Positions 3,371 through 32,000 of a DNA stretch of 32,000 bases are shown here, piece after piece; position 1 is the first letter of the stretch; each line of letters begins with the position of its first letter. The DNA is from Acaryochloris marina S15 (lineage in GTDB: Bacteria; Cyanobacteriota; Cyanobacteriia; Thermosynechococcales; Thermosynechococcaceae), in NCBI RefSeq assembly GCF_018336915.1, contig NZ_CP064923.1, positions 5,550,001 through 5,582,000 of the forward strand, read 5' to 3'. The notes below the pieces were generated by a model. It worked only from the letters and a program-made list of their open reading frames with translations, was not told where the DNA came from and made no database searches. Both the position numbers and the translations under genes were made by a program.

Positions 3371-5133
3371 CTACATTCAGCAGGCTAGCTAGCAGAGCAG
3401 ATAATATTTTTTACAGCCCTTCCCAAGGAACGGCAAGATAAGTTGCTGCCTGCTGTTGAGCTTGATGAGATGCTTGGCACCATCAAGCCAAACTAAATGG
3501 ACGGCCTGAAAGCATTGGAGAATCCAACGTAACGTAGGTTTCATAGTTTGTTTCCCCTTCTGATTAGGGAGAGTTGTTTGTACTTGTTCTAGTGCATTTC
3601 TTAACTGTCGTTGTCCTAAGCTGTAGACCATCAAACACAAGGCCATGATCATGGCTAAGGCAGCGATACGCCGAGGTGTCTTCAGGAAAACACTAGAGGC
3701 AAAGAAGAGTGGATCTTTGATAAAGCGAAAGCCTCCTTCACACGCCTGCTGGTTCTTATACTCGCGCAGAATATCATCATTGCTCCATTGCTCTTGTTCC
3801 AAGAGATTGGTGGCTAAGATGAAACGACCTGCTTGCCGCCGATAGCGTTCGATGACTGGCTCATTGAGGGTTAAGGTAGCCTCAATAGAATAGGTGTAGT
3901 GAGTCACAACCGTTGCTTTTGTCGGTCGTCCAGCCTTTGAATAATGAGGTTTTTTGTGGATTTTGAGATCGTCAAGGGTGTGATACCTGAGGATTTTGCC
4001 AAAATCTTGGGCTGCAGCTAAAGCATCTGCAGGGCACAAGAAGGTCTGTTTGCAGAGGGTTTTAAGTGCAGTAGTTTTTTGGCTAAACGCCTGATCAATC
4101 CGCTTTTGCACTTGTTTGAGTCCAGAGTCTCTGCGAGCTTTACTTTCAACCACCAGCCACCGTTGTTGAATCTCTCCATAGGTACTACATACTTCGACAA
4201 AGCTATAGCCGTTGAGAGCACTGGGGTGAAACTGTGAACCCGGCAGCCCTTGTAATAAGTCTTGGGCTGCCGTTGAACTTGCTGGAACTCGGCTAATCCA
4301 AGATGTACTTCCTAATGCTTGCAGATTGTCGGCACTGTAGAGGGCACTATCAGCAACAATCACCTCTGGCTGTTGCTGACTCCACTGTTGCTTAAATTCA
4401 TGGATGATAGGCACAAACGTACTTTTGTCCGCATCATTACCGTTGCCCACTTGTAAAAATAAAGGAATACCCCCGTCCCCACTCACCAGTAGGTTCAATA
4501 CAAACTGCTTGAGATCACGACGATTGTCCCGTGAGTAGCCGTAGGTGATTTTCACGGGTATCGGCTCCTCTGATTCAGCCAGTGCAGGGGAGGGGGACTC
4601 AGGTGCAGAGGGGGATTCGTCTGACGCCTCAACCTGTGGTTTATCTAAGTATTGCCCCTCAACACTAAGGCTTGTCGCATCTAGATGCGCACACCTTAGA
4701 GCTACATCGAATTTCTGAACGACTGCCATTGCCACATGGATAAATATCTGGGTCACACCATAGGCATAGAGCTTGTCGAGGACTCGACCGATACGGGTAT
4801 CGTTGAGGTGCTCTGGCAGTACACCTTGACCGAGTAAGTGCTCGGTTGCTTTGCTTTCGAAAAACTCACTAAATAAGTACAATGGAGCACTCAAAAAGCC
4901 CATACCATTTAGAATCAGGGCTTTGACAACTTGACCACAACTAACATTCTCTTGCTCGTGAGTACCTAATAATCGATCCACTATTTCGACAATGCCGATC
5001 TCATCGACGATACCGGCAATAATACCGAGATGGTCAATATCCTGAACGTCTATCTCTTGAGGTGAATACATGGACTTGCGTTGAGAGACAACCTCAAAAT
5101 TATCCCTTGATGGTTAGTACCTGCTGAATGTCG
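3371..5133 (-). mobile_element. IS1634-family (IS4 superfamily) insertion sequence, ~1763 bp, apparently intact
   Basis: Terminal inverted repeats are CTACATTCAGCAGG (3371-3384) and the reverse complement of 5120-5133 (CGACATTCAGCAGG), matching 13/14. A subterminal GATAAT(A)TTTT match sits 16 nt further in at both ends. There is a single 560-aa transposase ORF and perfect 8-bp flanking direct repeats. Confidence 0.85.
3389..5071 (-). CDS. IS1634-family DDE transposase
   Basis: The 560-aa ORF has an N-terminus (IDHLGIIAGIVDEIGIVEIVD...GMGFLSAPLYLF) typical of the DUF4277 + DDE(IS4) architecture of IS1634-group transposases. It fills the space between the IRs. Confidence 0.85.
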   Translation of the reverse strand: MYSPQEIDVQDIDHLGIIAGIVDEIGIVEIVDRLLGTHEQENVSCGQVVKALILNGMGFLSAPLYLFSEFFESKATEHLLGQGVLPEHLNDTRIGRVLDKLYAYGVTQIFIHVAMAVVQKFDVALRCAHLDATSLSVEGQYLDKPQVEASDESPSAPESPSPALAESEEPIPVKITYGYSRDNRRDLKQFVLNLLVSGDGGIPLFLQVGNGNDADKSTFVPIIHEFKQQWSQQQPEVIVADSALYSADNLQALGSTSWISRVPASSTAAQDLLQGLPGSQFHPSALNGYSFVEVCSTYGEIQQRWLVVESKARRDSGLKQVQKRIDQAFSQKTTALKTLCKQTFLCPADALAAAQDFGKILRYHTLDDLKIHKKPHYSKAGRPTKATVVTHYTYSIEATLTLNEPVIERYRRQAGRFILATNLLEQEQWSNDDILREYKNQQACEGGFRFIKDPLFFASSVFLKTPRRIAALAMIMALCLMVYSLGQRQLRNALEQVQTTLPNQKGKQTMKPTLRWILQCFQAVHLVWLDGAKHLIKLNSRQQLILPFLGKGCKKYYLLC

Positions 5134-6997: not shown

Positions 6998-8305
6998 GTG
7001 GTCAGGATTCTCCGGTTGTCAGAGATGACATCTGAAGAACTCGCTTCCATCAAACGACGGGCCGAGTTAGATATTGAACAGGCGCTAGCTGTCGCCAAAG
7101 AAGTCATTGACGAGATTCGCGCTGACGGTGATCAGGGCGTGATCAAATACGTCCGCAAATTTGATTTTCCCGGTGCCACAACCGAAAATCTGAAAGTGAC
7201 CGAAGCCGAATTTGCCGTTGCCCGCGAGCAAGTCGAGCCCGAAATCAAAGCCGCGATTGAGCAAGCCTATCGCAACATCAAAGAAGTGCACGAACGGCAA
7301 ATGCCAGAAGAAGTGCAGCTTGCCGAAATCGATGGCGGCGTCTTTGCTGGGGAAAAAGTCACCCCTATTGCCAGTGCTGGACTATATGTGCCTCGGGGTA
7401 AAGGCTCCTTTCCCTCAGTGATGCTGATGCTCAGCGTGCCAGCGGTCGTAGCCGGAGTGGAAAGAATTGTTGTCTGTACACCACCGGACAAAAACGGCAC
7501 CGTAGAGCCTGCCTCTCTTGTCGCAGCTGAACTGGCAGGCGTGAAAGATGTATACAAATTAGGCGGCATCCAAGCAATCGCAGGCATGGCGATCGGTACT
7601 GACACAGTACCCAAAGTCGATAAAATCACTGGACCTTGCAACGTCTATGGCTCCGCCGCCAAGCGCCTGCTCTACGGCACCGTTGATGTTGGCTTACCCG
7701 CTGGTCCTAGTGAATCGATTATTCTTACGGACGAAACCACTGACCCCCGGATTGCAGCCTTAGATCTGCTGGTAGAAGCAGAGCATGGTCCCGACTCGGC
7801 AGGCTTACTGGTTACCCACAGCGAAGACCTAGCCAAGGCCGCGTCCAAACATGCAGACGACTATATGCAGCAGTTGCCTGAATGGCGCAAAAACTTCTGT
7901 CAGAAGGGCCTGTCTTCTTATGGCGGTATTATTCTCACCTCCAGCCTGGAAGAATCGATTGATTTCCTCAACGATTATGCCCCTGAGCATTTAGAAGTTC
8001 TGGTACAAGACCCCCTCAGCGTTCTCGGCAAAATCAAGAATGCTGGTGAAATTCTCCTCGGTCCCTATACCCCCATTCCAACGGCCAACTACTGCATTGG
8101 CGTCAACGCCATTCTGCCTACGGGAGGCTTTGCTCGCTCCTACTCGGCGGTATCGGTATACGACTTTCTCAAGCGCACTGGCATTGGTTATTTAACAAAA
8201 GAAGGCTTTGATCGCTTGGGCCATACGGCTCAAACCTTGGCGGAGCATGAAGACTTCCCGGCCCATGCCATGGCCATTCGTGAGCGTAAGAACCTGCTCC
8301 CGTAA
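6998..8305 (+). CDS. hisD: Histidinol dehydrogenase
   Basis: Full-length 435-aa match to the HisD pattern (YVPRGKGSFPS, KITGPCNVY, EAEHGPDS, APEHLE). The GTG start is preceded by AAGGAG 7 nt upstream. Confidence 0.95.
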   Translation: MVRILRLSEMTSEELASIKRRAELDIEQALAVAKEVIDEIRADGDQGVIKYVRKFDFPGATTENLKVTEAEFAVAREQVEPEIKAAIEQAYRNIKEVHERQMPEEVQLAEIDGGVFAGEKVTPIASAGLYVPRGKGSFPSVMLMLSVPAVVAGVERIVVCTPPDKNGTVEPASLVAAELAGVKDVYKLGGIQAIAGMAIGTDTVPKVDKITGPCNVYGSAAKRLLYGTVDVGLPAGPSESIILTDETTDPRIAALDLLVEAEHGPDSAGLLVTHSEDLAKAASKHADDYMQQLPEWRKNFCQKGLSSYGGIILTSSLEESIDFLNDYAPEHLEVLVQDPLSVLGKIKNAGEILLGPYTPIPTANYCIGVNAILPTGGFARSYSAVSVYDFLKRTGIGYLTKEGFDRLGHTAQTLAEHEDFPAHAMAIRERKNLLP

Positions 8306-8324
8306 GGGGCGGTGGAGGGTTACC

Positions 8325-9548
8325 GTGTCCGATCAACTCCTGTATCAGATTCAGACGTTACAGTTTTCTGATCAGGCAGCGGCGAATGCCCTGCTGAAGG
8401 ACTTCGTCAATGACAATTTCCCTTTCAATGTGGAGCAGGTACAGGTACGTCCTTCGGCGGTATCCCTTAACTCCATTAATGGATTTCTGCATACCGTGGA
8501 AGGAGACAAACTGTTCTTCAAAACCCACGTTGAACCCCAAAGCCTGATTCATGAGTATTACAACTCCACGATCATGGCAGAGGCAGGCTATCCCATTATT
8601 CAGCCCATTTTTAGCTCAACAGAATGGGGTAAGCAGCTGCTGGTCTATGAGTTTTTTGAATCCCCATCTCTGTTTGATGTGGCTCGTCAGATTGAAACGG
8701 GACAGCGAGGCGGAGCTGACCAGATTATTGCCCTGCAGGAAAAAGCAGACCAAGACCTGTGGGCCATCTATCAGCAAACCCTGCAGCCTTTATCAGCCGA
8801 AGACCATGCCGAAGTCCCCATTCACCAACTGTTTGTCCATCGCCTAGTCGGAGGACGATATCACGAGTTTTACGCAGGCAAAGAAGTCAAGCTACCAGAA
8901 CACACCCTGAACTTTGACCCACTCGCTCAACTAACCTGGCAGATTAATGGCATACCTTACCAAGACACCCTAGCTGACATTATTCAAACAGCCAGTCAAA
9001 AGCTTGTCCCAACCTCTACTCCCTCTGTTGTCGGTCATGGTGATGCTCATAATGGCAATGTGTTCGTAGATGAAGACGCAGAAACCCTGATCTATTTTGA
9101 TCCTGCCTTTGCCGGACGGCATTCACCCTTTTTAGATCTAACGAAGCCGATCTTCCATAACGTATTTGCGATTTGGCTGTATTTCCCCCAAGAGATCGCC
9201 AAAGACCTATCCATTAACTTAGAGATCTCAGCAGACCAGATCCAAGTGGATCATGATTTTCGACCATCAGCTATACGTCTAAGATTCCTGCAATCAAAGC
9301 TCATGCATGTACTCCAGCCCTTGCTTGAGCGCCTAAAAGCTTCTGGTCAACTCCCTGAAACCTGGCGACAGGAACTCAAGTTGGCACTGTTTTGCTGTCC
9401 TTTTTTAACCATGAACCTCTGCGATACCCAACGCTTTCCGCCAGAAATTACGCTACTGGGCTTATCCCTAGCAGTAGAAATGGGCAGTTCTAGCACCTCC
9501 CAGAACCAGAGCATTTTAGATACTGCCCTGGACCAACTCAACATATAA
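8325..9548 (+). CDS. APH/choline-kinase-like phosphotransferase family protein
   Basis: Catalytic-loop motif HGDAHNGNVF followed by IYFDPAF (a DFG-like D). The track ORF starts at 8208 inside hisD. The GTG at 8325 is in frame, follows a GGAGGG Shine-Dalgarno at 8314-8319, and lies 19 nt after the hisD stop. Confidence 0.75.
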   Translation: MSDQLLYQIQTLQFSDQAAANALLKDFVNDNFPFNVEQVQVRPSAVSLNSINGFLHTVEGDKLFFKTHVEPQSLIHEYYNSTIMAEAGYPIIQPIFSSTEWGKQLLVYEFFESPSLFDVARQIETGQRGGADQIIALQEKADQDLWAIYQQTLQPLSAEDHAEVPIHQLFVHRLVGGRYHEFYAGKEVKLPEHTLNFDPLAQLTWQINGIPYQDTLADIIQTASQKLVPTSTPSVVGHGDAHNGNVFVDEDAETLIYFDPAFAGRHSPFLDLTKPIFHNVFAIWLYFPQEIAKDLSINLEISADQIQVDHDFRPSAIRLRFLQSKLMHVLQPLLERLKASGQLPETWRQELKLALFCCPFLTMNLCDTQRFPPEITLLGLSLAVEMGSSSTSQNQSILDTALDQLNI

Positions 9549-10928: not shown

Positions 10929-12356
10929 ATGGAAACGCAAACCGATTCCAATCCGAGCAACTTAGATATTCAATTCAATTTTTGGCAACAGTGGTATCCA
11001 GTCGCTCCCTTAGAAGACTTAGATCCACAGCGCCCCACTGCCATTACGTTATTAGGGCAACATTTTGTTATTTGGCAACCCAAGCATTCTGACCAATATC
11101 TAGTATTTCAAGATCTGTGCTCCCACCGCTTAGCTCCCCTCAGTGAAGGTCGCATTGACGAGCAAACCGGTCAGCTCATGTGTAGCTATCACGGTTGGCA
11201 ATTTGATCAAGAAGGTCTTTGCACCCACATTCCTCAAGCTGAAGCAGTCACCCCTAAGCAGGGACAGCTGTACTGCGTTACTGCTGTCCCCACTCAAGCG
11301 CAAAGTGGACTGTTGTGGGTATGGCCAGATCCAGACACCCGAGAAATTGCTGCCACACAACCTTTGCCTCTCTCCCCCCTCATTAATGCTGACCAAAACT
11401 TTGTCTGGTCCTCTGTCATGAGAGATTTGGCCTATGATTGGCAAACGTTAGTTGAAAACGTCTCTGACCCGAGTCACGTTCCCTTTGCCCATCATGGTGT
11501 CCAAGGCAATCGCAACCAAGCCGCTCCTATCCCTATGGAGGTTCTGACCTCCACCCCAGAGCTAATTGAAGTCTTGACCACGGGGAAGTTCGCCACCACA
11601 ATCACCTTTCAACCGCCCTGCCGCTTGGAATATCAATTTTCTATCGGTGAAGGGAAACAAGCAGCTATGGTCACCTACTGTATTCCCATTGCCCCAGGTC
11701 GATCTCGCATCGTAGCCCTGTTTGCACGCAATTTTGCCACAGGTCTCATGAAAGTGCTTCCTCGCTGGGTAGAGCATATGAAAAACCGCAATCCAGTGCT
11801 GGATGGCGACATGATTTTGTTACGTGCCCAAGAAAAACAGCTTCTTCAGCACACCCAAACCCAAAATTGGCAAACCGCCTACAAGCTCCCCACCAGTGCG
11901 GATCGTCTCGTGATTGAATATCGGCGATGGTTCGAAAAGTATAGTCACGGACAAATTCCTTGGGGATCTGCTGATGGGCAGATTTTCGTTGCTTCCAACA
12001 ACTATGACTATTTACAACCTCTAGGAGAGAAGCGACCTCAAATTCTGGATCGATATCATCAACACACCTTGATCTGTAGTAGCTGTCGACGAGCGTTGAG
12101 CAGAATCAAGCTATTGCAAAAGATTTTGGTAGCTGTCTTTGCGATCGCAATCAGTGGAACAGCAATCTTGCCTGATTCTTTACTCCCTTCCCGCCATAAG
12201 ATTGTGCATCTAAATATCATTGAAATTCTTATTTATCAAGAATCTGAATACCCAATCTTATGCTGGGATGGGAGTAAGAGTGACGTGGGGGATTCCCATG
12301 GTTCTCATAGGGCTTCTAGGGTTAGGGATCTATTATGGGTTGAAATATTGGCTTAA
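10929..12356 (+). CDS. PaO/Tic55-type Rieske [2Fe-2S] non-haem-iron oxygenase; the 3' end appears frame-disrupted
   Basis: Rieske motif CSHRLAPLSEG...CSYHGWQF, mononuclear iron region DPSHVPFAHHG and the PaO-family C-terminal CxxC (CSSCRRAL). After residue ~418 the translation becomes atypical (HKIVHLNIIEILIYQESEYPILCWDG...), while the +1 frame carries a TM helix and a ...KYWLKPRFYFVDYIHAHH tail. Confidence 0.85.
   Translation: METQTDSNPSNLDIQFNFWQQWYPVAPLEDLDPQRPTAITLLGQHFVIWQPKHSDQYLVFQDLCSHRLAPLSEGRIDEQTGQLMCSYHGWQFDQEGLCTHIPQAEAVTPKQGQLYCVTAVPTQAQSGLLWVWPDPDTREIAATQPLPLSPLINADQNFVWSSVMRDLAYDWQTLVENVSDPSHVPFAHHGVQGNRNQAAPIPMEVLTSTPELIEVLTTGKFATTITFQPPCRLEYQFSIGEGKQAAMVTYCIPIAPGRSRIVALFARNFATGLMKVLPRWVEHMKNRNPVLDGDMILLRAQEKQLLQHTQTQNWQTAYKLPTSADRLVIEYRRWFEKYSHGQIPWGSADGQIFVASNNYDYLQPLGEKRPQILDRYHQHTLICSSCRRALSRIKLLQKILVAVFAIAISGTAILPDSLLPSRHKIVHLNIIEILIYQESEYPILCWDGSKSDVGDSHGSHRASRVRDLLWVEILA
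12183..12274. repeat. AT-rich palindromic (MITE-like) element inside the 3' end of the Rieske gene
   Basis: Imperfect 22-nt inverted repeats: CTCCCTTCCCGCCATAAGATTG (12183-12204) against the reverse complement of 12253-12274 (CTCCCATCCCAGCATAAGATTG). They match 19/22, including a perfect 10-mer CATAAGATTG. An inner ATTCTT/AAGAAT pair is also present. The exact boundaries are uncertain. Confidence 0.55.
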
Positions 12357-15686: not shown

Positions 15687-19037
<3,351 letters not shown>

Positions 19038-25250: not shown

Positions 25251-25847
25251 TTAGATTCCACCCGCTGGCATACCGCCATGACTCCGCGGATCGTCTTGAT
25301 TCCCCCTGACTGCAGGTTGGAATATAGATGTTTGACCCATTGCTTTCGACGTTGGCAAAGTATCCTCAGCAACTAGCGCAGCTAAATTATCTGCCAAAAT
25401 CTGTCGAGGCTGTTGTCCCACTGAGCTCGCTAAGGCTTCACCGCTACCATCCAGATACACAAAATGGGGAATGCCATCAACGTCAAATTTGAGCACTTCA
25501 GGCAGCCACTTGCTGTTGTCAACGTTCAACATCACAAAATTAACTTGATCAGAAAATTCTTGCTTGAGGCTGTGCATATCATCAGCCATGGCCTGACAAC
25601 TCGTACACCAATTCGCATAGAACTCCATCAAGGTGGGTTTTTGATTCGTTAATGCGATTTCTATGGGGGTTGAATCAGCTGCTAGAGCTGATAAGGAAGG
25701 TTGTTCAGTTTGCTGGCGAGAACCGAAAAAGAGAGCGATACTGAGTGCGATCGCAACCATAGCAACCAAAAAATTTCTTAATCGTTGACTGGTCGTTGCT
25801 GTATCAGCCTCAGGATTGGACGGCATATCTGATGGATCTAAAGTCAT
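25251..25847 (-). CDS. txlA: Thioredoxin-like membrane-anchored protein (TxlA-type thiol:disulfide interchange)
   Basis: WCTSC redox motif in [15 protein letters not shown], one N-terminal TM helix ([16 protein letters not shown]) and a thioredoxin fold. The start is ambiguous (ATG at 25847, 25874 or 25880), and the far-upstream track start at 25958 is unlikely. Confidence 0.75.
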
Positions 25848-26216
25848 GAGGTATCCAAGGTTGTGACTAATCATTCCCATTCTCAGTTTAGTCATCCACT
25901 GGCTGAGTACACACATCTTTACCAAATAAAATCGAACCTTTGGCACTTTTGTCTTCATTTCCCTCGGTATCAGAGATTGAGACGGATCTCATACATTTTT
26001 CCGTACCCTAGCCAGTGATTTACCTCACAACTATCTATCTTCTAATCTTGTAATCTGCTAGATAATTTCCACAACAGCACTCACTCAATTCGATGTGGAA
26101 TCAATAGCGACCAGACAATGGTCAGTCAGAAGATCTCAGCATTTTCTCTCAAGCTAATTAATCAGCGTTTAGCAACTCTCAGAAAACATTTATAAGGGGA
26201 TTTAGGTGGGGGGCCT

Positions 26217-26879
26217 ATGAAACTTAAAAATCAGCAGATGCTACCGCTCGACGAGCAACTCCGTCAACTGGTCATAGAAGCCCGCCAATATCCCTCAGGC
26301 CATTTGAAACGAAAGCAATGTTTGACGCAGATTGTGCGACTGATTGAACAATCTCGTAAGCTCTGGCATGAACATACTCCTTACTATGAAGATGCCCTGC
26401 AGCAAACCTGGGTTTATTTTTGCCAAAATATTTGTGAAGCCGGTACTGGCGAACAATATGATCCCGACCGTAGTAGTGTCGTTACCTGGTTAAACCGATA
26501 TCTGAAATGGCGCTTACAAGACTTTCGCATTAACAAACAAAAGCACCTCGCAAGATATACCTCTAAAGCTCCTAGCGCCATCAACAAAAACCAAGACGTC
26601 ACGGATAATCTCGCTGCTCCTCCAGATACTCCCCCAATTTTGGAAACAACCCGTCATTGGGTGGAAACCGACCCCTCAGGTGAGTTAAGAAACGTTCATA
26701 TTCAAAACCGACCGGATGTCACCTGCCAAGTTTTACTATTAAGGCGTCTGCCACCGGAGCAAGGATGGGAAAAGGTTTCTGAAGAATTTGGCTTACCCAT
26801 TTCTACCCTGAGTAGTTTTTACCAACGACAATGTATGACCCGCTTGCGTAATTTTGGTCTGTCACAAGGATATCTATAA
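26217..26879 (+). CDS. Sigma-70-family-like protein (divergent region 2 + region 4 HTH)
   Basis: The region-2-like segment is YEDALQQTWVYFCQNI...SSVVTWLNRYLKWRLQDF. The region-4-like HTH is WEKVSEEFGLPISTLSSFYQRQCMTRLRNF. It is the first gene of a four-gene co-oriented cluster. Confidence 0.7.
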   Translation: MKLKNQQMLPLDEQLRQLVIEARQYPSGHLKRKQCLTQIVRLIEQSRKLWHEHTPYYEDALQQTWVYFCQNICEAGTGEQYDPDRSSVVTWLNRYLKWRLQDFRINKQKHLARYTSKAPSAINKNQDVTDNLAAPPDTPPILETTRHWVETDPSGELRNVHIQNRPDVTCQVLLLRRLPPEQGWEKVSEEFGLPISTLSSFYQRQCMTRLRNFGLSQGYL

Positions 26880-26902
26880 TAGAAGTTCCTGATTTTGACT
26901 CC

Positions 26903-27874
26903 ATGCTTCCCTTGATGAGCGATTCTTTAGCCTTACCCATTACCCTAACCGCGAGGCAAATAGCCCAAGGCTTTGGGCAACAGCAATCCACACCTGAGAA
27001 ATGCCAGCAAGTCTATCTCAACACCCTAGCGGTCCTTGCTGTTAAAGAGTATCTGGCATTGATGGAAATCCCCTGCAATCTGGAAGCTAGCGATAGCTGG
27101 AATCCAGTAGTGCGACTCTGTGCAGACGTTGCCGATCTCCTCATTCCGGGTATGGGCAGTTTAGAATGTCGCCCAATTTTACCTGGCACGCCTACCTGTC
27201 TCTTGCCCCCTGAAGTCTGGTCGGATCGCGTCGGTTATTTAGTTGTCGTCATTGATGATCAACAGCGGAGGGCTCGCATCCTAGGATTTACGCCCACTGC
27301 TCAAGCCGGTCAAATCGCCATAGAGCACTTACAACCCCTCGAATCCCTATTGGCTCATATTAGTGAATTCATGTTGGTAGACACCAAACCACCAACATTC
27401 GTTCAAACTGATCTGGGTCAATGGCTACAAGGTATCTTTAATCAAAGTTGGCAAGTAGTTGAAGACCTATTACAACCCTCAACCCGAGAGCCAGCATTTC
27501 ACTTTAGAAGTGCAGCCACAACGTCAACCGTTGAGCTAGATGACGATGCCGTTCAAATTAAGCGGGCCAAATTAGTCAAATTCAAAAATGATGCAGAAGA
27601 AATTCCCCTCGTCTTGATCATGAATCTTCTGCAAACTGAAACATATAGCCAGCGGATGCTCTGTGTTCAGCTCCGACCCGCAGGTCAATGCACATCATTA
27701 CCCGCTAATTTAGTGCTTAGGGTGCTGGACAACCAGCACAATACATTTTTAGAAGCCCAATCACGACAAGCGGACAACTACTTACAGCTTGAGTTCAGCG
27801 GATTACCAGGAGAACAGTTCCATCTCGATCTAGAGCAAGGCAACCACATCCTAACTGAAACATTTATTATTTAG
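26903..27874 (+). CDS. DUF1822 family protein (cyanobacteria-restricted, function unknown)
   Basis: The N-terminal LPITLTARQIAQGFGQQQSTPEKCQQVYLNTLAVLAVKEYLALMEIP is the characteristic DUF1822 opening. It starts 23 nt after the sigma-like gene. Confidence 0.75.
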   Translation: MLPLMSDSLALPITLTARQIAQGFGQQQSTPEKCQQVYLNTLAVLAVKEYLALMEIPCNLEASDSWNPVVRLCADVADLLIPGMGSLECRPILPGTPTCLLPPEVWSDRVGYLVVVIDDQQRRARILGFTPTAQAGQIAIEHLQPLESLLAHISEFMLVDTKPPTFVQTDLGQWLQGIFNQSWQVVEDLLQPSTREPAFHFRSAATTSTVELDDDAVQIKRAKLVKFKNDAEEIPLVLIMNLLQTETYSQRMLCVQLRPAGQCTSLPANLVLRVLDNQHNTFLEAQSRQADNYLQLEFSGLPGEQFHLDLEQGNHILTETFII

Positions 27875-27928
27875 AAATTTTTGCCCTGGCTGCATAGAAA
27901 GGAGATGCCTCTATAAAGAGAACAAGCC

Positions 27929-30900
27929 GTGGATAAATTAGTCGTATTGCGCATGGGAGAAGGTAGCTTTACACAGGGTTTTCCTGTGACCCTTCAAGTT
28001 GGCAAAGAAAACGACAGACCCTCGACTGAAATTGTTGGTTTTCTTCCTCCCAATCCTAATATTCCTCAGTATTATCAAGGGTGGCAAACGGCTTATCTCA
28101 ACTTGGGACTAACCACCCGTTTAGATGCTCCCACAGAACAATTAACCAACATCGATTGGCAAGAACTCCAAATCAACTGCGAACAGGCAGCCCACACACT
28201 TCATCATGCATTAGATCAATGGCTTCTAGCAGACCCCTTTCGACCTGTTCGGGATAAATGGCTGGAGCAACTTTCTCTACAAGATCACATCCGGATTATT
28301 TTGCAAACGGATAATCCGCAACTGCAGCGCTTACCCTGGCATCAGTGGGAACTTTTAACACGCTACCCCTTTGCCGAACTGGTCTTGAGTGCTCCAACCT
28401 ATGAAGGCATTCAGCGCCAATCTAGCTCCACTGCTGGCATCAAGATTCTTGCCATTTTGGGGAGTAGCCAAGGCATCAATACTCAAGCAGATCACGGGTT
28501 ACTGAATCAGCTTCCTAACGCAAATGTGACGTTTCTGGTAGAACCACAGCGGCAAGAACTCACCGATCAGCTATGGGATCAAAACTGGGATATTTTATTT
28601 TTCGCAGGCCATAGCCATAGCTCTAATCCCTGTGACACAGGCCATATTTGCCTCAATGCTCATGAAACACTGAATATCAATCAGCTGAAGTATGCTCTGC
28701 AGCAAGCCATTAGCAAAGGGTTACAGCTTGCTATTTTCAACTCTTGTGACGGTTTAGGACTCGCCCATCAACTGGCTGACATCCATCTGCCAGCCATGGT
28801 GATCATGCGCGAACCCATTCCTGATCAAGTAGCCCAATATTTTCTCAAGTACTTCTTAACTGCTTTTTCCAAAGGCAAACCTTTTCATTTAGCCGTCCGC
28901 GAAGCTCGGGAACGACTCCATGATCTTGAGCCTCATTTTCCATGTGCCACGTGGCTGCCGATTATTTGCCAAAATCCAGCCGAGATTCCACCCACATGGC
29001 AAAAGCTGAGTAAAAGTGATGGAGACGACTATTCTTTATGGCGCCATGACAATGACTCAGCAGCTCAAATCGTCACGATTGTCTTCACCGATTTAGTCAG
29101 CTCTACTGCCATTAAACAGGCTATGCCTGGCCTGGATGTCACAACCCGTAACCACCAGTATTACGACACAATTCTCCAACCCCACCGCCAACGCGTCACA
29201 GCTAGCTTAACGGCCTTTGGCGGTCGCTTGGTCAAAACAGAAGGGGATGGCTTTCTTATAAGCTTTCCAGGTGCCATGCAGGCTGCACAATGGTCCATCG
29301 CCCTGCAACAGCACCATGAACAAGATCCGATTACGACACCGTTTGGCCCCTTACAAGTCAGAATCGGTATGCATACAGGCAGCCCCTTATTGAAGGCTGA
29401 AGATCATGACTACATTGGCCAAGAAGTAGACTATGCCTATCGCATTTCTGACTTAGCTGATGGTGGACAAATCCTACTGTCAGAAGTCTCAGCCGTGTTG
29501 CTGCGCAATGCAGGCCTAACGGATATTACGGTGTATGACCATGACCATTGCTCCCTCAAAGGAATCGGCTGTGTACCTGTTTTCGAAATTCTCTGGGACA
29601 ATCGGCAACCCCGTCCGGTGCGAGATACACCATCCACGGTCTCGAATTCTCGCCATCAAGACCGACAGTCACCGGAAGTAGAACAAACTTTGCCAACTGC
29701 TGTGGCACCAATTGTTGCGGAACTGCCTCTAGAAAAAGTATCTCTCTTTTCTAAAGTTCACCGTTTTTGTCGCCGTCCTCTTTTATCCGCCTTGCCTACC
29801 AGTCTATGTTTGACAGCTGCCATTATTGGCATTCGAGGGCTAGGCATTCTACAGCCCATAGAGTTTTGGGCATTTGATCAGCTCCTGCGCCTCAGACCAA
29901 ATGAAGGTCCCGATCCCAGGCTATTAATTGTATTGGTCACGGATAAAGATATTCAGGCCCAAGGGGATCAGACGAAGCGGAGTTCTTTAAATGATCCAAC
30001 CCTGACTCGACTCCTGACTCAGTTAAACAAGGCTAAACCCCAGGCCATCGGCTTAGACATTTACAGAGATTTTACCGTTGATCCGAACTACCCCCAACTC
30101 GCGACCCAACTCAAGAACAATGAGCGCTTAGTAGTTCCCTGTAAAGGGAGTGATTCATCCAGTAATACAGATGGCATCGCGCCTCCAACTGAAGTACAAG
30201 CACCCAATCGCATCGGTTTTACAGATTTTATCGAAGATGGAGATGGGGTGTTACGCCGACATATCCTTCATATGAACCATGAGCCTGCCTCTCCCTGTCA
30301 AGCGTCTTTCTCCTTCGGTTCTCTGTTAGCCTTCCATTACTTGGAACAGCAGTCACCCCAGACATTTTCCCTCAAGTTTGCTGAACCCGAAGGCCACCCC
30401 TTGGAGTTGCAGGTTCAAACGGATCAACCTGGTACCGGAACAACACGAACCACAATCTTTAAACAACTACAGCCCCATGGCGGCTATCAAGGGATTAACG
30501 ATGACCGCATGAGAGGCTTGCAATTAATGCTAAATTATCGAGCCTTAAAGAGACCGACAGACATTGCCAAAACGGTAACTTTGGAGCAAGTACTGGCGGG
30601 ACAAGTTAATGCCAATGCGATTAAAGACAAGGTTGTTTTAGTGGGAGTCCAAGCGAGTGGATCTGGAGATTTTTGGTCTACTCCCTACGGTGCTGGCCCC
30701 ACTCAGAAGGTGGCAGGTGTTTTTGTGCAGGCTCATATGGCCAGTCAGATCATCAGTGCCGTTGAAGATCAACGTTCCTGCTTCAAAATATGGCCTCAAT
30801 GGGCTGATGGTCTTTGGATCTGGGGCTGGGCAATGATGGGCGGCATCGTTGCTATTGTCTTCAAACTCACAACTCGCACCGGTGTGATCAGCACTGTTTT

Positions 30901-31051
30901 AGTGAGTGGATTGTTCAGCCTCTGTTTATGGGGCCTGATACAGGCCATCTGGATGCCGCTCATACCGTCCCTGATAGCTTTTGTCATCACGACCGTTGCG
31001 GTGCTGTTAGTGCGCACCAAAAAAATTGATCATGATCATCCAGCTTCTTAA
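27929..31051 (+). CDS. Multidomain membrane protein: N-terminal CHAT (caspase-like) protease domain, class III nucleotide cyclase domain, TM helix, CHASE2 sensor domain, three C-terminal TM helices
   Basis: GTG start. CHAT core spans ~aa 170-350 with the His/Cys dyad FFAGH(228)SH (28610-28612) and IFNSC(273)DG (28745-28747). The cyclase spans ~aa 381-556 (VTIVFTDLVSST, VKTEGDGFLISF, VRIGMHTG, GQEVDYAYRISDLADGGQILLS). TM1 is aa 617-640. CHASE2 spans ~aa 641-955 (LRLRPNEGPDPRLLIVLVTDKDI, AIGLDIYRD, GFTDFIEDGDGVLRR, VVLVGVQA). The C-terminal TM helices are aa 958-1028. Confidence 0.8.
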   Translation: MDKLVVLRMGEGSFTQGFPVTLQVGKENDRPSTEIVGFLPPNPNIPQYYQGWQTAYLNLGLTTRLDAPTEQLTNIDWQELQINCEQAAHTLHHALDQWLLADPFRPVRDKWLEQLSLQDHIRIILQTDNPQLQRLPWHQWELLTRYPFAELVLSAPTYEGIQRQSSSTAGIKILAILGSSQGINTQADHGLLNQLPNANVTFLVEPQRQELTDQLWDQNWDILFFAGHSHSSNPCDTGHICLNAHETLNINQLKYALQQAISKGLQLAIFNSCDGLGLAHQLADIHLPAMVIMREPIPDQVAQYFLKYFLTAFSKGKPFHLAVREARERLHDLEPHFPCATWLPIICQNPAEIPPTWQKLSKSDGDDYSLWRHDNDSAAQIVTIVFTDLVSSTAIKQAMPGLDVTTRNHQYYDTILQPHRQRVTASLTAFGGRLVKTEGDGFLISFPGAMQAAQWSIALQQHHEQDPITTPFGPLQVRIGMHTGSPLLKAEDHDYIGQEVDYAYRISDLADGGQILLSEVSAVLLRNAGLTDITVYDHDHCSLKGIGCVPVFEILWDNRQPRPVRDTPSTVSNSRHQDRQSPEVEQTLPTAVAPIVAELPLEKVSLFSKVHRFCRRPLLSALPTSLCLTAAIIGIRGLGILQPIEFWAFDQLLRLRPNEGPDPRLLIVLVTDKDIQAQGDQTKRSSLNDPTLTRLLTQLNKAKPQAIGLDIYRDFTVDPNYPQLATQLKNNERLVVPCKGSDSSSNTDGIAPPTEVQAPNRIGFTDFIEDGDGVLRRHILHMNHEPASPCQASFSFGSLLAFHYLEQQSPQTFSLKFAEPEGHPLELQVQTDQPGTGTTRTTIFKQLQPHGGYQGINDDRMRGLQLMLNYRALKRPTDIAKTVTLEQVLAGQVNANAIKDKVVLVGVQASGSGDFWSTPYGAGPTQKVAGVFVQAHMASQIISAVEDQRSCFKIWPQWADGLWIWGWAMMGGIVAIVFKLTTRTGVISTVLVSGLFSLCLWGLIQAIWMPLIPSLIAFVITTVAVLLVRTKKIDHDHPAS

Positions 31052-31082
31052 ATCCTCATCCCCAGTAAAGGAGATTTCGTTT

Positions 31083-31931
31083 ATGCTGACTGCCCAACCT
31101 TTTTCTCGATCAATGCTGCTAACCTTAGCAGTTTGTACCATGGCAAGTGCAGGACTTTCTGGGCGCACACCCCATGTAATGGCCATGCATCAGCACCACC
31201 ATCTGACCTTTACCATGCCAACTCCCCCCAGCGACCCCGGCGCCCCGACCGGTCGGCGTGAAGGTGGAAGCAGTCGTGGCGATAAAATTTACACTTTATG
31301 TAAGACGGAAGCAGAAGCAGCCAACAAACAATGTGCAACGTCCCGATTAACCGCTCTAGTACCTGAAATTGATGCAGAAAAACAGATCTGGGGGCTGACA
31401 ACAGCTGATCACCCGGAATTCCTCTTCTACTTATCGAAGTTCAGAACCCCAGAACAACCCCAAACCACACGCCTGAACATTGAATTCGTCTTGCAAGACG
31501 AGAACGATCAATACGTCCACAAAACCCGTTTTGCTTTACCGTTGACGGAAGGTGGCATCATTCGTATTCCTATTCCTGCAAACCGAGATCCTTTACAGGT
31601 GGGCAAGCGATATACCTGGACGCTTTTGACAAAATTCGGACCGAACGAGACCAATTATGTACACGGCAGAATCTACCGTGTACAGATGGACACCCAACGC
31701 CAGCAGCAATTGCCAACAGCTTCCCCCTTGAAGCGTTTGGAAATCTATTTGGAAGAAGGCTTATGGTTCGATGCAATTTCGATGTTGGTTGATTTAAAGC
31801 AAGATGCTCCCCAAGATCTAACGCTGATCTCAAAATGGAACAGTTTGTTAGACAATATCAATCTCAAAGAACTGGCCACTGAACCCATGCTGTCCTGTTG
31901 TACCCCTGAACCCCATTTATCCCTCAAATAA
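31083..31931 (+). CDS. DUF928 domain protein, secreted
   Basis: The ATG at 31083 is preceded by AAGGAG (31068-31073). It has a signal-peptide-like N-terminus MLTAQPFSRSMLLTLAVCTMASAG. The DUF928 hallmark PPSDPGAPTGRREGGSSRGD is followed by LTALVP...WGLTTADHPEFLFYL...EFVLQDEND...GKRYTW. The track start at 31026 overlaps the previous gene. Confidence 0.75.
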   Translation: MLTAQPFSRSMLLTLAVCTMASAGLSGRTPHVMAMHQHHHLTFTMPTPPSDPGAPTGRREGGSSRGDKIYTLCKTEAEAANKQCATSRLTALVPEIDAEKQIWGLTTADHPEFLFYLSKFRTPEQPQTTRLNIEFVLQDENDQYVHKTRFALPLTEGGIIRIPIPANRDPLQVGKRYTWTLLTKFGPNETNYVHGRIYRVQMDTQRQQQLPTASPLKRLEIYLEEGLWFDAISMLVDLKQDAPQDLTLISKWNSLLDNINLKELATEPMLSCCTPEPHLSLK

Positions 31932-32000
31932 TCAGGTCTTTGATGATGCCTGATTATGGCTGTTGATAAACCGTTAGGAATAAGACAGGGTTTGAGTCTT

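Follow-up and report, generated by a model that had tools for sequence, protein, structure and literature searches.

In the cyanobacterium Acaryochloris marina S15, the gene of a large sensor protein with a CHASE2 domain is followed by a small gene of the DUF928 family, and the question raised by this locus is what the product of the second gene does for that of the first. The two genes close an operon that begins with a 220-residue sigma-like open reading frame (ORF), continues with a DUF1822 gene and with the sensor, made of CHAT, class III cyclase and CHASE2 domains, and ends with DUF928. The operon is located in a stretch of 32,000 nucleotides of contig NZ_CP064923.1 (assembly GCF_018336915.1, positions 5,550,001 to 5,582,000, forward strand), hereafter called the window, in whose coordinates positions are given unless another locus is named. 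An initial annotation, made from the letters of this stretch, had proposed that the DUF928 protein is a periplasmic ligand, co-receptor or processed signal for the sensor. The comparison of DUF928 loci presented here leads us to regard it, with moderate confidence, as a subunit of the CHASE2 receptor whose gene precedes its own, acting in the periplasm as an accessory or co-sensor protein, a physical association to which the genomic context points. CHASE2 has, to our knowledge, been assigned neither a ligand nor a mechanism of activation since its description in 2003, and none was found in the literature searched.

The DUF928 gene (positions 31083-31931, plus strand) starts with an ATG at 31083, stops with a TAA at 31929-31931 and encodes 282 residues. 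Its product matches Pfam family PF06051 over the whole domain (residues 61-269, profile positions 2-184 of 184; E=1.9e-47), with a score of 161.8 bits that lies far above the gathering cut-off of 26 bits. The closest relatives are Acaryochloris DUF928 proteins (89-91% identity), and the thousands of other DUF928 proteins have the same size, signal peptide, N-terminal motif and body. By its sequence, the protein is a typical representative of DUF928, a cyanobacterial family predicted to be exported, the function of which is uncharacterised in Pfam. The sensor gene is its direct neighbor on the same strand. The stop codon of the sensor (31049-31051) and the ATG of DUF928 are separated by 31 nucleotides, within which a Shine-Dalgarno sequence AAGGAG (31068-31073, plus strand) can be read 9 nucleotides upstream of the ATG. 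Both the spacing and the separate Shine-Dalgarno sequence had been noted in the initial annotation and are confirmed from the sequence.

DUF928 Genes Accompany Most Sampled CHASE2 Receptors Whatever Their Output Module

The relationship between the two genes was followed in about 100 loci altogether. On the DUF928 side, genomes were scanned with one genome per species and 59 loci were found. Since an alignment of 28 DUF928 sequences had no conserved stretch, the search pattern, [IAV]EFVLQDE, was taken from a subset of 17 sequences, and the resulting set is biased towards members that keep this strand. Neighboring genes were assigned with hidden Markov models built from the window proteins, together with Pfam spot checks. 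All 59 loci are cyanobacterial except a contig labelled Candidatus Gracilibacteria (L016, JAAUUT010000061.1), which carries a typical cyanobacterial operon of sigma, DUF1822, CHAT-CHASE2 and DUF928 genes and is probably mis-binned.

A same-strand CHASE2 gene is directly adjacent to DUF928 in 55 of the 59 loci. The four exceptions comprise two contig edges, one DUF928 gene beside a gene with a two-partner secretion (TPS) domain (L015), and one beside a response regulator and a kinase (L065). The initial annotation had made its proposal depend on DUF928 genes being enriched next to CHASE2 genes. With this degree of adjacency, and with DUF928 accompanying most of the CHASE2 genes sampled, the enrichment is clear and this ground for refutation fails decisively.

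The modules joined to CHASE2 in these partners are a CHAT domain, CHAT plus a cyclase (in Acaryochloris only), a cyclase (CHASE2-cyclase proteins of Microcoleus) and, in one case, an N-terminal module that remained unknown when checked against Pfam. In Nostocales, the partners are CHASE2-GGDEF-EAL proteins and DUF928 is located upstream of them. Look-ups made by CHASE2 similarity alone retrieved a Ser/Thr kinase (Pkinase-CHASE2) and a TIR-CHASE2 protein, each with DUF928 immediately downstream, and DUF928 is downstream too at a locus where CHAT and CHASE2 are split. Of the four chromosomal CHASE2 genes picked in this way, three have DUF928 as their neighbor. Among 33 cyanobacterial plasmid records with CHASE2, a DUF928 match is found within about 1.5 kb in about 20, and at 2-14 kb in about 5 more. 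A CHAT-CHASE2/DUF928 pair is also carried by plasmid pCC7120alpha of Nostoc PCC 7120. Two apparent negatives on plasmids have an upstream DUF928-like ORF below threshold (E=1e-4 and 5e-3), which is reduced to the sandwich part of the protein, keeps an SRGC core and is devoid of the helical tail. These two ORFs of 179-192 residues, annotated as 'hypothetical protein' on plasmids of Gloeothece verrucosa, overlap the starts of the CHASE2 genes (L072 2828-3367 and L073 2840-3418). The linkage of DUF928 follows CHASE2 and not the output module.

The two genes are also close to one another and have diverged in parallel. The median gap between CHASE2 and DUF928 is 26.5 nucleotides; the genes overlap in 13 of 48 pairs, by 4 nucleotides in nine of these. 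Over 59 pairs, the distance matrices of DUF928 and CHASE2 are correlated with a Mantel r of 0.84, a value that none of 2000 permutations reached, and paralogous pairs that share a genome lie as far from one another as different classes do. Taken together, the correlation and the divergence of paralogous pairs indicate that DUF928-CHASE2 pairs are old and have diversified together.

Other genes recur around DUF928. Proteins of about 870-990 residues with TPR and CHAT domains are encoded in 22 DUF928 loci, and TPS-domain exoproteins resembling filamentous haemagglutinin in 12; flanks with such genes include those of L005, L017, L020, L028, L032, L034, L045 and L048, as well as L055, L060, L063, L067 and L069. 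The basic, strongly hydrophobic N-terminus of the TPR-CHAT proteins suggests exported or membrane-anchored caspase-like proteases. On a plasmid of Pseudanabaena sp. ABRG5-3 (L075) and on plasmid pNPUN03 of Nostoc punctiforme (L066), CHASE2 is found between the genes of a ShlB/FhaC transporter and of TpsA, with DUF928 several kb from CHASE2 in the same cluster. These layouts hint at a functional tie of CHASE2 and DUF928 to two-partner secretion.

Such neighborhoods raise the alternative that DUF928 belongs to a TPS/TPR-CHAT module, for instance as a periplasmic chaperone, substrate or inhibitor of the exported TPR-CHAT protease or of TpsA, and that it comes to lie beside CHASE2 by way of a larger island. 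The number of loci with TPR-CHAT and TPS genes, the DUF928 gene of L015 that stands beside a TPS gene in the absence of CHASE2, the DUF928 genes of pNPUN03 and Pseudanabaena embedded at a distance from CHASE2 in clusters of TPS, CHAT and ShlB genes, and the export or anchor segments at the N-terminus of TPR-CHAT proteins would all agree with such a role. However, adjacency to CHASE2 is far commoner than the presence of either TPS or TPR-CHAT genes. Moreover, the pair persists without them in the flanks examined of the window locus, of the Microcoleus CHASE2-cyclase loci and of A. thomasi. At the window locus, the flanks hold housekeeping and unrelated genes, and no TPR-CHAT or TPS gene is present among the window genes checked. 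Membership of DUF928 in a module of this kind thus appears unlikely.

Predicted Export, Conserved Motif, and Predicted Fold of the DUF928 Protein

Signal peptides were called by rule, from a basic n-region, a hydrophobic h-region and an AXA-type site obeying the -3/-1 rule. By hydropathy and by this rule, residues 1-23 of the DUF928 protein (positions 31083-31151, plus strand) form a predicted Sec signal peptide, with an n-region that carries R9 (MLTAQPFSR), an 11-residue h-region at residues 11-21 (MLLTLAVCTMA, Kyte-Doolittle value 2.19) and a cleavage site between ASA and G. A basic and then hydrophobic N-terminus is found in essentially all DUF928 members examined, usually followed by an AXA-type site. 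The signal-peptide-like N-terminus of the initial annotation is borne out at this rule-based level. Reading LAVC as a lipobox was considered and rejected: since C18 is not conserved among relatives, being Val in the A. marina orthologue, it is not a lipobox cysteine, and position -1 is also occupied by Val.

The sensor (1040 residues, positions 27929-31051, plus strand) matches CHAT (PF12770, 2.4e-14), Guanylate_cyc (3.1e-9) and CHASE2 (4.9e-62) in Pfam, the CHAT match covering residues 68-334 with residues 1-67 on its N-terminal side. In its predicted topology, a transmembrane (TM) segment at residues 617-635, preceded by KVHRFCRR, is followed by a CHASE2 domain outside, three further TM segments, the first at residues 962-980, and a basic cytoplasmic tail, so that the flanks obey the positive-inside rule. 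The predicted periplasmic CHASE2 portion, between the TM segments 617-635 and 962-980 (residues ~640-955, positions 29846-30793, plus strand), is the docking partner that we propose for DUF928. Because CHASE2 is predicted to be outside and DUF928 carries a signal peptide, the two would share the periplasmic compartment. The initial annotation had placed them there, and its view is supported, as a prediction, by the topology of the sensor and by the signal peptides of DUF928 and its relatives.

The CHASE2 and TM region (positions 29756-31048) was modelled by AlphaFold2 with a predicted local distance difference test score (pLDDT) of 92 and a predicted template modelling score (pTM) of 0.91. Its invariant residues include many Asp, Arg and Tyr, for example in IGLDIYRD and GFSD..D.DG..RR. 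A Foldseek comparison of the CHASE2 model with the PDB gave no structural neighbor (best E 0.33, TM-scores of at most 0.12), and the fold was set aside as a clue to the ligand, in spite of the confident model.

Mature DUF928 proteins mostly have two or four cysteines, and among the 59 partners the count is nearly always even, which fits an oxidising compartment. A C-terminal pair of vicinal cysteines is seen in 24 of these 59 partners and corresponds here to C272 and C273 (CCTPE, positions 31896-31901, plus strand). An intermolecular disulfide bond formed by this pair was rejected, the cysteine counts of DUF928 being nearly always even and not tracking those of CHASE2.

The best-conserved part of the family is an N-terminal motif rich in Gly and Arg. 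In the window protein it is contained in PPSDPGAPTGRREGGSSRGD (residues 48-67). Column frequencies were calculated from 62 DUF928 members, taken from the 59 genome loci and several metagenomic contigs, and give P-P-x-x-G(.87)-x-P(.97)-x-G(.97)-R(.74)-x-x-G(.89)-G(.79)-[GAS]-[ST](.77)-R(.94)-G(.82)-x-C(.94), followed after 5-8 residues by L(.97)-T-A(.98)-L-V-P(1.0). The whole family signature, PP-x-x-G-x-P-x-G-R-x-x-G-G-[GAS]-[ST]-R-G-x-C ... L-T-A-L-V-P, extends over residues 48-94 (positions 31224-31364, plus strand) and includes the invariant residues P55, G57, G61, R65, A91, V93 and P94. Further downstream, the strand EFVLQDE (residues 134-140) is likewise invariant, as are several positions occupied by Trp, Tyr or Gly. 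The 282-residue protein carries both the signature (residues 53-94) and EFVLQDE (residues 134-140) complete, as expected for a family member. In L044 (5992-6918), L062 (5593-6507) and L002 (8001-8930; Microcoleus group), the Pro-rich Gly/Arg motif is repeated in tandem, in two or three copies, ahead of the sandwich.

These frequencies separate what is general from what is local in the features that the initial annotation had singled out. The conservation of GRREGGSSRG that it wished to see in a logo is evident from the columns, which make this motif the most conserved element of the family, and the importance of G-R-x-x-G-G-S-S-R-G is upheld; the RGD tripeptide at its end is present in the window protein but is confined to the Acaryochloris clade. 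Likewise, the His-rich stretch MAMHQHHHL (residues 33-41, positions 31179-31205, plus strand) does exist but is a lineage-specific linker found only in close Acaryochloris relatives and modelled with a pLDDT below 50. Neither RGD nor the His-rich stretch, not being conserved outside the Acaryochloris clade, was retained as a functional motif. The two cysteines described as 12 residues apart are indeed found, as C73 and C84 bracketing the 12-residue string CKTEAEAANKQC. The loop that they delimit is an insertion limited to the Acaryochloris clade, in which DUF928 proteins are devoid of the internal sandwich cysteine. With the additional His-rich linker, these are the features by which the clade differs from other DUF928 proteins.

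The AlphaFold2 model of the DUF928 protein has a mean pLDDT of 76.7 and a pTM of 0.75, with residues 1-38 disordered. It predicts an immunoglobulin (Ig)-like beta-sandwich, which contains the invariant strand EFVLQDE (residues 89-199, positions 31347-31679, plus strand; pLDDT mostly >90), followed by a TPR-like C-terminal domain of five helices (residues 204-266, positions 31692-31880, plus strand; pLDDT 92-95). Foldseek returned no informative relative from the PDB, the matches being generic sandwiches of the Ig, fibronectin type III (Fn3) or carbohydrate-binding module (CBM) kind with E ~1e-4. Modules such as Fn3 of ScpA, the Ig-like domain of GH2 and the porphyran-binding CBM 8wae resemble residues 89-199 in topology, but with query TM-scores of 0.2-0.3 and identities of 8-18% the likeness is too generic for a functional inference. 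A profile search against PDB sequences and a search of NCBIfam for a functional analogue of DUF928 found nothing, and none of the four operon proteins matched the PADLOC models of anti-phage defence. No catalytic fold is apparent, so that DUF928 appears to be a binding protein. With E<=1e-3, the family comprises as many as 6,902 clusters at 50% identity. The 150 best matches listed are nearly all stand-alone DUF928 proteins of 240-360 residues, with a few tandem doubles; the lack of fusions among them fits a separate subunit.

A binding protein of this type can be set against a second alternative, in which DUF928 is a signal precursor: a periplasmic protease would cut out the Arg/Gly-rich segment and the released peptide would be the CHASE2 ligand. 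That the most conserved element comes after a variable Pro-rich linker, that it is repeated two or three times in L044, L062 and the Microcoleus group, as is often the case in peptide precursors, and that its conserved Arg would suit Arg-specific proteases are all in keeping with this idea. On the other hand, about 200 residues downstream are strongly conserved and confidently folded (EFVLQDE, Y177/W179 and the helices with W228/W252), which would be needless in a leader or carrier. A Cys occupies the second position past the motif in 94% of the members, and in those with two cysteines its only possible partner is the sandwich Cys; a disulfide bond between them would tether the motif to the fold. 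Finally, the operon (positions 26217-31931) has no gene dedicated to peptide processing or export. A released peptide is, in our view, distinctly improbable.

DUF928 as a Proposed Periplasmic Partner of CHASE2

The CHASE2 ectodomain with its TM segments is the sole element that all partners of DUF928 have in common, and DUF928 is predicted to be exported; a periplasmic subunit of the receptor is therefore the most economical reading. In such a scheme, DUF928 would share a transcript with the sensor, and the two would probably be translated in step. The protein would then pass through the Sec pathway and lose its signal peptide, and its disulfides would form in the periplasm. The mature form may consist of a flexible Pro-rich linker, a G-R-x-x-G-G-S-S-R-G...C segment pinned to the Ig-like sandwich, and the TPR-like tail. 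It would bind the periplasmic portion of CHASE2, either presenting a stimulus as a co-receptor or locking the receptor until a stimulus removes DUF928, and would thereby set the activity of the cytoplasmic module, here a CHAT protease and a nucleotide cyclase. The DUF1822 and sigma-like proteins are likely to represent a downstream transcriptional branch. The functional surface is likely the Arg/Gly-rich segment, the acidic EFVLQDE strand, or both.

That DUF928 is instead the output of the pathway, an envelope or periplasmic protein driven by the sigma-like factor of the operon with no direct contact to CHASE2, would suit its place as last gene of an operon opened by that ORF and a generic binding fold that could act on the envelope, but it is hard to reconcile with a pairing that is kept without sigma or DUF1822 genes and with cyclase, GGDEF-EAL, kinase or TIR outputs, or with start/stop overlaps and a strong co-diversification that rather evoke a stoichiometric partner, and we give it little credence.

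Several observations weigh against a receptor subunit and temper our confidence in it. In L015 and L065, DUF928 occurs without a CHASE2 neighbor. Conversely, no DUF928 was detected near a Nostoc CHASE2-PAS-GGDEF gene, nor at a CHASE2 gene of Gloeothece that precedes a response regulator gene, and CHASE2 is also found outside cyanobacteria. Receptors of this sort imply that DUF928 is not universally required. Adjacency and the Mantel correlation would be expected from simple operon co-inheritance as well. The motif region is modelled only moderately (pLDDT 53-75), and export with cleavage of the signal peptide is a rule-based prediction.

TPR-CHAT genes, with TPS exoproteins, adjoin about a third of the DUF928 loci. 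A bolder version of the receptor-subunit model can be built on this, in which an exported TPR-CHAT protease would cut the Arg-rich G-R-x-x-G-G-S-R-G segment of DUF928 and so release or activate the CHASE2 receptor. We offer this protease-gated lock as a speculation with a slender chance of being right. If true, CHASE2 would report extracellular or periplasmic proteolysis, or contact-dependent secretion, instead of a small molecule, and would link a caspase-like protease of the periplasm with one of the cytoplasm.

Other Features of the Operon and of the Window

The first gene of the operon, the 220-residue ORF (positions 26217-26879, plus strand), belongs to a family kept at this position in 24 loci. 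It has no match in Pfam or NCBIfam. The profile of its family matches RpoE (2q1z) weakly (E=0.031), and one member matches Sigma70_r4_2 at 2.8e-5. Elsewhere, the same position is held by a different Sigma70_r4 protein of 400-426 residues, and BLASTP gave no similarity between the 220-residue ORF and the 426-residue protein. The ORF may at best be a very divergent extracytoplasmic function (ECF) sigma factor. It is followed by the DUF1822 gene (positions 26903-27874, plus strand; PF08852, E=6.3e-68), the product of which corresponds to the TRADD-N/TPR protein of Kaur et al. (2021). A DUF1822 gene is found 5' of the CHAT-CHASE2 gene in 38 loci. The combination of CHAT, class III cyclase and CHASE2 seen in the window sensor occurs in the Acaryochloris clade only (5 loci), CHAT-CHASE2 being devoid of a cyclase elsewhere.

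At the 3' end of the operon, an AT-rich hairpin, TAATCAGG-N12-CCTGATTA (positions 31929-31956), covers the stop codon of DUF928 and lies between convergent genes. It folds with -15.1 kcal/mol in a context of 61 nucleotides (z=-2.7 relative to shuffled sequences), has no U-tract and does not score as terminator-like. Its sequence is not conserved in A. marina MBIC11017 or in two other Acaryochloris genomes, and a conserved regulatory element was discarded on these two grounds. The initial annotation was right about the hairpin itself but had thought read-through to a gene beyond it likely. What follows is a DUF1835 gene on the opposite strand, which ends about 42 nucleotides past the DUF928 stop. 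It reaches the window with its 3' end only (positions 31974-32000, minus strand) and continues beyond it; in the longer contig L001, which carries an identical DUF928 gene and is related to the window by an offset of 24472 (window = L001 + 24472), it spans 7502-8797 on the minus strand. Because this gene is convergent, the operon ends with DUF928, and read-through is not expected.

Upstream of the operon, a divergent gene (positions 25251-25958, minus strand) encodes a membrane-anchored thioredoxin-like protein. It is placed likewise in A. thomasi (L004 3035-3622) and in other Acaryochloris loci, an arrangement that may reflect synteny alone or else a connection with the formation of disulfides in the exported partner. 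The rest of the window includes a transposase gene of the insertion sequence type (DUF4277 and DDE_Tnp_1, positions 3389-5071, minus strand) among housekeeping genes, hisD (6998-8305), CTP synthase (16326-18179) and ROK kinase (18153-19037) genes, and a gene for a PaO-like Rieske oxygenase (10929-12356).

Relationships With Known Systems

Exported, non-enzymatic proteins that act on the extracytoplasmic domain of a sensor are known from the ExoR-ExoS, LuxP-LuxQ, YycH/YycI-WalK and CpxP-CpxA systems. Several of these accessory proteins are encoded beside the sensor gene, and ExoR is built of TPR-like (Sel1) repeats. ExoR, LuxP, YycH/I and CpxP may be regarded as the closest functional analogues of DUF928, with the reservation that its interaction with CHASE2 is a putative one. 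No relationship in sequence or fold was found between these systems and DUF928-CHASE2, and the receptor domain and the outputs (protease, cyclases, kinase, TIR) differ.

In the searchable literature, the name 'DUF928' appears in a single paper, which mentions one WD40/CHASE2/DUF928 cluster in Nostoc punctiforme and an acid-stress response of sll1891, and no paper combines 'CHASE2' with 'CHAT domain'. A partnership of DUF928 and CHASE2 that is independent of the output is thus largely unpublished in that literature and provides a useful lead on CHASE2 signalling. DUF928 becomes a candidate for a dedicated exported partner of most of the cyanobacterial CHASE2 receptors sampled, whatever their output. 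This would give a large family of the DUF type a working function and CHASE2 signalling an experimental handle.

The system closest to the window operon is that of the EACC2-caspase (CHAT) proteins described with an ECF sigma factor and DUF1822, the latter two being proposed to form a downstream branch (Kaur, Iyer, Burroughs and Aravind, eLife 2021; PMC8195603). The gene order is shared, from the sigma-like ORF and DUF1822 to a CHAT protein with a C-terminal CHASE2, and the window operon has both the CHAT domain (PF12770) and, immediately upstream, the DUF1822 gene (PF08852). Supplementary file 17 of the same study lists the string 'EACC2+CASPASE+CHASE2+TM+TM -> TM+beta_rich+TPRs', the second part of which matches the architecture modelled for DUF928; the gene downstream of caspase-CHASE2 is neither named nor discussed there (PMC8195603). 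Two differences can be added. The window sensor contains a cyclase in addition, a feature observed only in the Acaryochloris clade, and the link of DUF928 described here follows CHASE2, also outside caspase systems. Hence, if DUF928 is a receptor subunit, it would bring an extracytoplasmic component, unnoticed so far, to the caspase/TRADD-N/sigma 'conflict' systems of Kaur et al. (2021).

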